From a virus (taxonomy: Duplodnaviria; Heunggongvirae; Uroviricota; Caudoviricetes), in the IMG/VR virus record IMGVR_UViG_2690316148_000009: a stretch of 5,206 nucleotides of DNA; one strand, given 5' to 3'. The translations under genes were made by a program, and so were the position numbers. The notes beneath the pieces were generated by a model that did not search any database, was not told the DNA's origin, and saw nothing but the letters and a program-made list of their open reading frames with translations. Of this stretch, positions 4,572-5,206 are shown in pieces (the stretch's first letter is position 1; each line of letters starts with the position of its first letter).

Positions 4572-5206
4572 TCAGCTGATACTGATGCCTGCGGTGGCTT
4601 TCTTCATCACCACAACCAGCAAATCGCTGATACTTGCTGTGGGATACCAGTTATTCACCAGCCATGCTGACACCGAAAACTCCAGCGTCATGTGNNNNNN
4701 NNNNNNNNNNNNNNNNNNNNNNNNNNNNNNNNNNNNNNNNNNNNGGCATATCAATAACACCCGTATATATCAGCGTATTATCCAGCGCGGTACGGTTATA
4801 AATTTCAGCACCGTTTTTCCGTACTATCAGGCGGCATGACGAATAAATATCGTTATTCTCCCGCTCATGTTTAGCGCCGCTGAATGCCACCGCCGGAATA
4901 ACAATTTGCCTGTCAAAAGGCTGATCGTCATAAATCCTGACGGTAATGGTCCCNNNNNNNNNNNNNNNNNNNNNNNNNNNNNNNNNNNNNNNNNNNNNNN
5001 NNNNNNNNNNNNNNNNNNNNNNNNNNNNNNNNNNNNNNNNNNNNNNNNNTGGTTGGCTGACAGTTTCCCCTTAATCTGACAGTTCTCATTAATTGTGACA
5101 TTGTTGAGCGTCCCGGCGTTCGCATTCACACTGCCACTGATATCTGCATTTTTAGCGGTCAGTTTTCCGTCCGGTGTCAGGGAAAATGCCGGAGGATTAC
5201 CGCCGC
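4572..5206 (-). CDS. J: tail tip host specificity protein J, C-terminal portion (partial; 5' end outside window; interrupted by two N runs)
   Basis: Minus-strand translation from the window edge reads [51 protein letters not shown], then an N gap, then ...[67 protein letters not shown], then a second N gap, then [40 protein letters not shown] and a stop at 4572..4574. The first two resolved segments resemble the lambda J C-terminal region as I recall it ([28 protein letters not shown]..., DDxPFDRQIV...); the last segment diverges from lambda. The reading frame changes across each N run, so the three ORF-track fragments are pieces of one gene. Confidence 0.8.
4695..4744. other. run of 50 N (masked or undetermined bases) inside J
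   Basis: The run of N is seen directly in the sequence. The J reading frame is not preserved across it. Confidence 0.99.
4954..5049. other. run of 96 N (masked or undetermined bases) inside J
   Basis: The run of N is seen directly in the sequence. The J reading frame is not preserved across it. Confidence 0.99.

Follow-up and report, generated by a model that had tools for sequence, protein, structure and literature searches.

Two mis-sized assembly gaps most likely account for the broken reading frame at the J end of a lambda-like prophage whose tail tip probably recognizes OmpC

Introduction

In phage lambda, three C-terminal Ig-like domains of J are located at the tail tip, and their bottom loops enter the trimer of the porin receptor; the spreading of these domains after porin insertion is relayed up the fibre, whereupon the tail opens (PMC11101478). 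The "specificity region" of lambda J comprises residues 960 to 1132, and the shift of lambda to OmpF requires residues 1012 and 1107 together with a change between residues 990 and 1000 (PMC6646904). Specificity regions of lambdoid J proteins are known to be mosaic (PMC6646904). Phage 21 natively uses LamB and gained the use of OmpC through a single mutation (PMC11336670).

In work by Brodel et al. (Nature 2024), lambda J was equipped with C-termini taken from natural J variants (PMC11338833). Two of these chimeras, A8 and 1A2, deliver DNA even when the recipient cells lack lamB, and it is the OmpC variant supplied that decides delivery (PMC11338833). For 1A2, delivery into lamB ompC double-deletion cells was obtained only when suitable OmpC variants were supplied (PMC11338833); these included the variants of EDL933 and TN03 as well as several others, but not that of MG1655 (PMC11338833).

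Here we analyze a stretch of 5,206 nucleotides, referred to below as the window, in which the 3' end of such a J gene is interrupted by two runs of N. A sequence-only reading of the window had suggested that these runs hide part of the receptor-binding end of J, that their lengths are placeholders, and that the receptor specificity differs from that of lambda.

Results and Discussion

On its minus strand, the window contains the right-hand end of a tail module of the lambda type, with the 3' end of J followed by lom, stf and tfa, which is also the gene order of lambda. The features are as follows (positions in the window).

113-694, minus strand: tail fibre assembly gene (tfa), 193 aa (Pfam Caudo_TAP)
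694-3753, minus strand: side tail fibre gene (stf), 1019 aa (Pfam phage_tail_N, Phage_fiber_2, Collar)
3905-4504, minus strand: lom, Ail/Lom outer-membrane protein, 199 aa (Pfam PF06316, E 1e-125)
4534-4553, minus strand: terminator-like hairpin with T run between J and lom (consensus scan only)
4572-5206, minus strand: J, C-terminal part, last 191 codons in the window (open reading frames and Pfam)
4575-4694, minus strand: J piece C, last 40 codons (HMTLEF...GISIS), with the stop codon at 4572-4574
4695-4744, no strand: putative scaffold gap 2, written as 50 N; true length 13 nt, completing 5 codons
4745-4953, minus strand: J piece B, 69 codons and 2 bases of a Pro codon (GTITVRIY...GVIDM); core of the receptor-binding domain
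4954-5049, no strand: putative scaffold gap 1, written as 96 N; true length 76 nt, completing 26 codons
5050-5204, minus strand: J piece A, 51 codons and 2 bases that start a Gln codon (GGNPPAF...KLSAN); the contig ends at 5206

The window contains exactly two N runs, one of 50 N at 4695-4744 and one of 96 N at 4954-5049, as the sequence-only reading had given them. Both belong to the record itself and are no statistical pattern, so that chance plays no part in them. The first codon bases of pieces A, B and C fall into position classes 2, 0 and 2 (position modulo 3), and the frame thus shifts at both N runs; the description of J as three fragments with differing frames was accurate, and the final J segment quoted in that reading is the exact translation of piece C. 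Piece B contains many stops in its other two frames. Piece A is the counterpart of lambda J residues 941 to 991, i.e., of the central straight fibre directly above the receptor-binding domain.

Origin of the record and true gap lengths

The window is the reverse complement of a whole public contig, CXDF01000212.1 (GCA_001253095.1, 5206 nt), including both N runs, which are hence part of the deposited record. As relatives, we used seven sister contigs that encode the identical 1019-aa Stf, the complete genome of E. coli 118UI, and loci retrieved by anchored pattern scans of IMG/VR. Downstream of the gaps, each of the seven sister contigs has 4.1 to 4.6 kb in common with the window, at 99.9% identity. 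Within J, piece A is identical at 157 of 157 nt to E. coli 118UI and to the seven sister contigs, piece C is 100% identical to both, and piece B agrees with the sister contigs at 205 of 209 nt. In other contigs with CX accession prefixes, N runs of 1, 21 and 44 nt occupy positions unrelated to these gaps, and the sister contigs with other accession prefixes contain no N runs.

All seven sister contigs have an open J end, with an identical 76-nt filler in place of the 96 N and an identical 13-nt filler (AGCTGGTCGCGGC) in place of the 50 N. The same two distances are found in E. coli 118UI, inside an intact J of 1157 aa (WP_016235292.1). In IMG/VR, the first gap measures 76 nt in all 80 loci with both anchors and the second measures 13 nt in 137 of 138 loci, with 14 nt in the remaining one; a scan of IMG/VR for distances of 36 to 66 nt at gap 2 found none. 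The frame of J, broken in the record as written, becomes continuous through the domain to the stop codon with the 76- and 13-nt sister fillers. Since the true lengths yield one open frame over the last 191 codons of J, we attribute the frame break to gap size, and the N lengths were correctly regarded as placeholders.

The fillers also supply the hidden residues. Together with the 2 flanking bases in each case, the 76 nt complete 26 codons encoding QIEGDIVKTVGKAFPRDSRAPERWPS (the counterpart of lambda J 992-1017), and the 13 nt complete 5 codons encoding PAGRG (lambda J 1087-1091). The gap-1 peptide is the same in 78 of 80 IMG/VR relatives, and the gap-2 peptide reads PAGRG or PAGHG, each in roughly half of the relatives. 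By comparison with the sister genomes, the 31 hidden residues are thus recoverable, being nearly invariant within the allele family, and this near-invariance allows the receptor type of J to be called from the resolved flanks.

A multicopy gene and an allele switch beside the smaller gap

With a 702-nt J query, 13,981 matches were obtained, spread over 4,443 of the 5,426 complete E. coli genomes, with a median of 2 and a maximum of 14 per genome. The four base differences between piece B and all sister contigs cluster at 4762-4768 (minus strand), 18 to 24 nt before the 50-N gap, and change Ser to Thr in the segment LIY[S/T]GVIDM. The variant 16-mer covering these positions is present in 20 IMG/VR loci and belongs to a second allele, likewise natural and of the same domain type, which differs from the sister allele at approximately 73 sites spread across a 645-nt region. 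Up to sister coordinate 401, piece B agrees with the first allele, and from coordinate 419 through the end of the piece it agrees with the second; piece C is of the first allele again. An exact 51-mer of piece B had no match in genome, viral or metagenome contigs, because it spans this switch.

We propose that the window represents one entire scaffold from a draft assembly of short reads and that its N runs are scaffold gaps of estimated length; that the lengths are estimates of the scaffolder is suggested by the variable N lengths and by their mismatch with the true distances. Both the gaps and the contig end in J most likely arose from the several prophage copies of this part of J that a genome may carry. 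The end of piece B would then have been extended by reads from a paralogous copy, such that its last 25 to 40 nt before the 13-nt gap carry the second allele; the failure to close so small a gap would thereby be accounted for. The features seen here resemble those of estimated-size gaps in short-read drafts of multicopy prophage genes, namely, odd and variable N lengths, a repeat present 2 to 14 times per genome, a contig end within the repeat, and a probably paralogue-derived end beside one gap.

Two further observations may be mentioned here. The contig end at 5206 falls inside a conserved fibre part of J (GGNPPAF...) that is approximately 90% identical across other J types; the break is of the typical repeat-induced type, and the sister contigs of other accession prefixes read straight through it. 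In addition, and in line with a multicopy gene, one sister contig (L187, from a similar CX accession series) carries, at 2506-3930, a second J 3' end with another receptor-domain type (...KKAASGISIR), followed by a partial lom, a single N and the window-type J end, which reflects either a paralogous prophage or a mis-scaffold.

The receptor-binding domain compared with that of lambda

For domain analysis we used a gap-filled J sequence of 191 residues, composed of the window pieces and the sister-contig fillers and hence not derived wholly from the window. It matches Pfam PF12421 (Ig_GpJ_C) with 135.1 bits (cut-off, 26.2) over profile positions 1 to 135, and piece B alone reaches 70.8 bits. 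The domain lies at the extreme C-terminus of J and is followed in the window by lom and stf/tfa, as would be expected for a J of approximately 1130 to 1160 aa; the full-length J of E. coli 118UI with this end has 1157 aa. The best match in the PDB is A8 gpJ (9WCA, E 2e-80), followed by lambda gpJ (8XCJ/8IYK, E 9e-57 to about 1e-57). Counted over the 109 resolved domain residues, with the hidden ones left out, the identities to known J proteins are as follows.

lambda J: 41/109 (38%)
A8 gpJ: 68/109 (62%)
Phage 21 J: 69/109 (63%)
J of O157:H7 prophage Stx2a_1447: 104/109 (95%)
Phage 204576 J: 107/109
E. coli 118UI J: 108/109 (99%)

The lambda J receptor-binding domain (LamB; 8XCJ/8XCK/8IYK) shares with the window J the PF12421 family, its location at the terminus of the protein and a conserved fibre segment that precedes it, and presumably also the general mechanism along with the MPAGRG motif. 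In piece A, 43 of 51 amino acids are identical to lambda; in piece C only 12 of 40 are (tblastn identity for the domain, 41%), which bears out the suspected divergence of the final segment. High identity to lambda J 960-1132, the LamB-type specificity region, is thus not found. The hidden residues were likewise rightly placed in the region that determines receptor specificity in lambda, since their counterparts at 992-1017 and 1087-1091 lie within 960-1132; this placement follows the genetic map of the specificity region (PMC6646904) rather than the structural loops L1 to L4. The larger gap covers the counterparts of residue 1012 and of the 990-1000 stretch, both genetically important, and the smaller one covers PAGRG, a motif conserved even in lambda. 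Closed with the sequence of relatives, the C-terminus of J is in frame yet not identical to that of lambda, and the suggestion of an altered specificity is therefore retained.

Allele type and probable receptor

By alignment, the domain is of a known allele type, that of VT1-Sakai, the O157 Stx prophages and gpJ 1A2. At least 89% identity in the domain was found for 57 phage records, which include VT1-Sakai, many O157 Stx2a/Stx1a prophages, JLK-2012, 2G7b and several PhiR phages. In a frameshift-tolerant alignment, the window domain has the same length as that of 1A2, without indels, and is at least 91% identical to it (116 of 127 readable residues), a lower bound because the 1A2 sequence was available as machine-read supplement text with dropped bases (PMC11338833). 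The near-identity extends to the related natural O157 prophage J, as listed above, and the J proteins of 1A2, VT1-Sakai, Stx2a_1447, JLK-2012, 2G7b and PhiR55_1 share domain type, length and J-lom order with the window. Approximately 5 to 6 apparent differences separate the window from 1A2: I84V, R108K, N110H, N111T, S189T, and R/H at hidden position 150. Positions 108 to 111 of the filled sequence correspond to the lambda 1048-1049 hot-spot loop. Within the 26 residues hidden by the larger gap, 1A2 deviates only by one Ile/Leu.

The near-identity to 1A2 points to OmpC as the probable receptor. On this analogy, we consider it reasonably probable that the tip of the window J recognizes OmpC, in an allele-restricted manner, and not LamB. 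The earlier suggestion of a receptor specificity different from that of lambda is in line with this assignment, as the domain belongs to an allele type that works via OmpC without LamB (PMC11338833). A tip of this type would employ the lambda mechanism, with the bottom loops of the trimer entering an outer-membrane porin, and would differ from lambda only in its porin partner. Few substitutions can alter receptor use in lambda and phage 21, so that the exact range could differ; with some 5 to 6 domain substitutions between them, 1A2 and the window J could thus recognize different sets of OmpC alleles.

We also considered, and rejected, an assignment of the window J to the type of A8 and phage 21. 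A8 gpJ (PDB 9WCA/9WCB; OmpC dependent) and phage 21 J belong to the same domain family, and their last 20 residues are nearly identical to those of the window J. Both lack 4 residues at the lambda-1012 site and have 5 additional ones at the lambda-1048 site, whereas the window type shows neither change: its resolved sequence contains no such insertion, and the true gap length of 76 nt rules out the 4-residue deletion. The identity of 62 to 63% also speaks against this type.

The PhiR phages with the J domain type of the window (PV340545-PV340571) have E. coli C or ECOR13 as recorded hosts, never K-12. These hosts agree with the inability of gpJ 1A2 to use the OmpC variant of MG1655, but this is only a correlation; a preprint that mentions these phages contains no outer-membrane receptor data for them.

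Alternative explanations

Taken as a whole, our account is one of mis-sized scaffold gaps over an ordinary 1A2-type J that probably binds OmpC and is probably encoded by a decaying gene, and we assign it a probability of approximately 0.88. Were the N lengths true instead, J would possess 20 + 37 extra bases and a C-terminus frameshifted twice. The record as written indeed gives frames 2/0/2, and the excess of 57 nt is divisible by 3, which puts pieces A and C in one frame, although a total that returns to frame is expected by chance in one case out of three. Spacings of 96 and 50 nt, however, occur in 0 of 80 (gap 1) and 0 of 138 (gap 2) loci and are absent from the seven near-identical sister contigs and from all listed complete genomes, and piece B, despite being stop rich in its other frames, keeps an open frame that is 98 to 100% identical to intact J genes. 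We find this reading scarcely credible. Deliberate masking, by a contaminant or adaptor screen or by the data provider, is very unlikely as well. Some sequence collections do mask a few stretches as N, and the database copy may bear the same masks, but masks normally preserve length, and here 96 stands against 76 and 50 against 13. Moreover, what is hidden is normal J coding sequence, which can be read in hundreds of other loci, and the N runs of 1, 21 and 44 nt in sibling CX contigs follow the pattern of scaffolding and subsequent gap filling. The fact that the N runs lie in the deposited record with lengths off from the true distances is what scaffold gaps would be expected to show. As to the switch at 4762-4768, both alleles are natural and J specificity regions are mosaic in lambdoid phages (PMC6646904), which would suit a real recombination (gene-conversion) tract in the J of this strain. 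The switch is nevertheless confined to the last 25 to 40 nt of a 209-nt piece, right before the unclosed 13-nt gap, piece C is back on the first allele, and none of the seven sister contigs has it; a recombination tract rather than an assembly chimera is hence improbable. More doubtful still is the further idea that the switch reflects gene conversion between J alleles of co-resident prophages and that R108, N110 and N111 (K, H and T in 1A2) shift the OmpC variants recognized. If this were true, the window would have captured E. coli prophages in the course of diversifying their receptor range.

The assignment of OmpC has its own competitor, in which the J tip binds LamB as lambda does, or another porin such as OmpF. 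Phage 21, with a domain 63% identical to that of the window, natively uses LamB and needed only one mutation to use OmpC, and the domain type thus does not strictly dictate the receptor; moreover, the hot-spot loop is among the places where the window and 1A2 disagree. Set against this are a domain that is only 38% identical to that of lambda but at least 91 to 95% identical to those of 1A2 and its natural O157 relatives, as well as the activity of 1A2 in cells without lamB, where delivery follows the OmpC variant. LamB or OmpF accordingly retains a minority chance, and we favor OmpC.

State of the J gene upstream of the window

In five sister contigs (L182 to L186), J contains a stop at W68 and has lost approximately 22 nt between CTGACGG repeats, which puts it out of frame near codon 624. 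The region concerned, 1731-5182 in L182, lies upstream of the point that corresponds to the window end at 5206. Judged on these five contigs, J as a whole is thus not intact, and the occurrence of the same lesions in independent assemblies indicates that they are real in the sister lineage. Since the window prophage is 99.9% identical to this lineage, its copy of J is probably a pseudogene, owing to lesions outside the window and not to the N runs.

Significance and further features of the window

What is seen here is most likely an artifact of a known type over a known J allele and is of little biological importance; the encoded protein end is identical to deposited proteins except for one Ser/Thr, which is itself of doubtful origin. 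The case illustrates how draft-assembly gaps of estimated size create false frameshifts and false "pseudogenes" in multicopy prophage genes, and that the receptor type of J can be called from resolved flanks despite 31 hidden residues. The probable use of OmpC rather than LamB could aid host-range prediction or the choice of J tips for engineered lambda particles, although it adds nothing new to what is known of this allele.

Among complete RefSeq E. coli genomes, matches to the whole window do not exceed 96% over 91% of its length. The Stf of 1019 aa, which has a long repetitive middle part rich in Ala, Ser and Thr, was found by exact look-up in at least 12 draft contigs, among them the source contig and the sister contigs, and its exact sequence is absent from the protein cluster collection. 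Downstream of tfa, at approximately 85-89, the window lacks about 109 nt relative to every sister contig that reaches this point (e.g., approximately 9670-9778 in L183). Within tfa, a 63-nt in-frame stretch (508-570) is shared by the window with L183 and L190; L182, L184 to L188 and L191 lack it. Finally, GC-rich terminator-like hairpins with T runs at 4534-4553 and 3772-3801 (minus strand), detected by consensus scan only, immediately follow J and lom, respectively, and so bracket lom.
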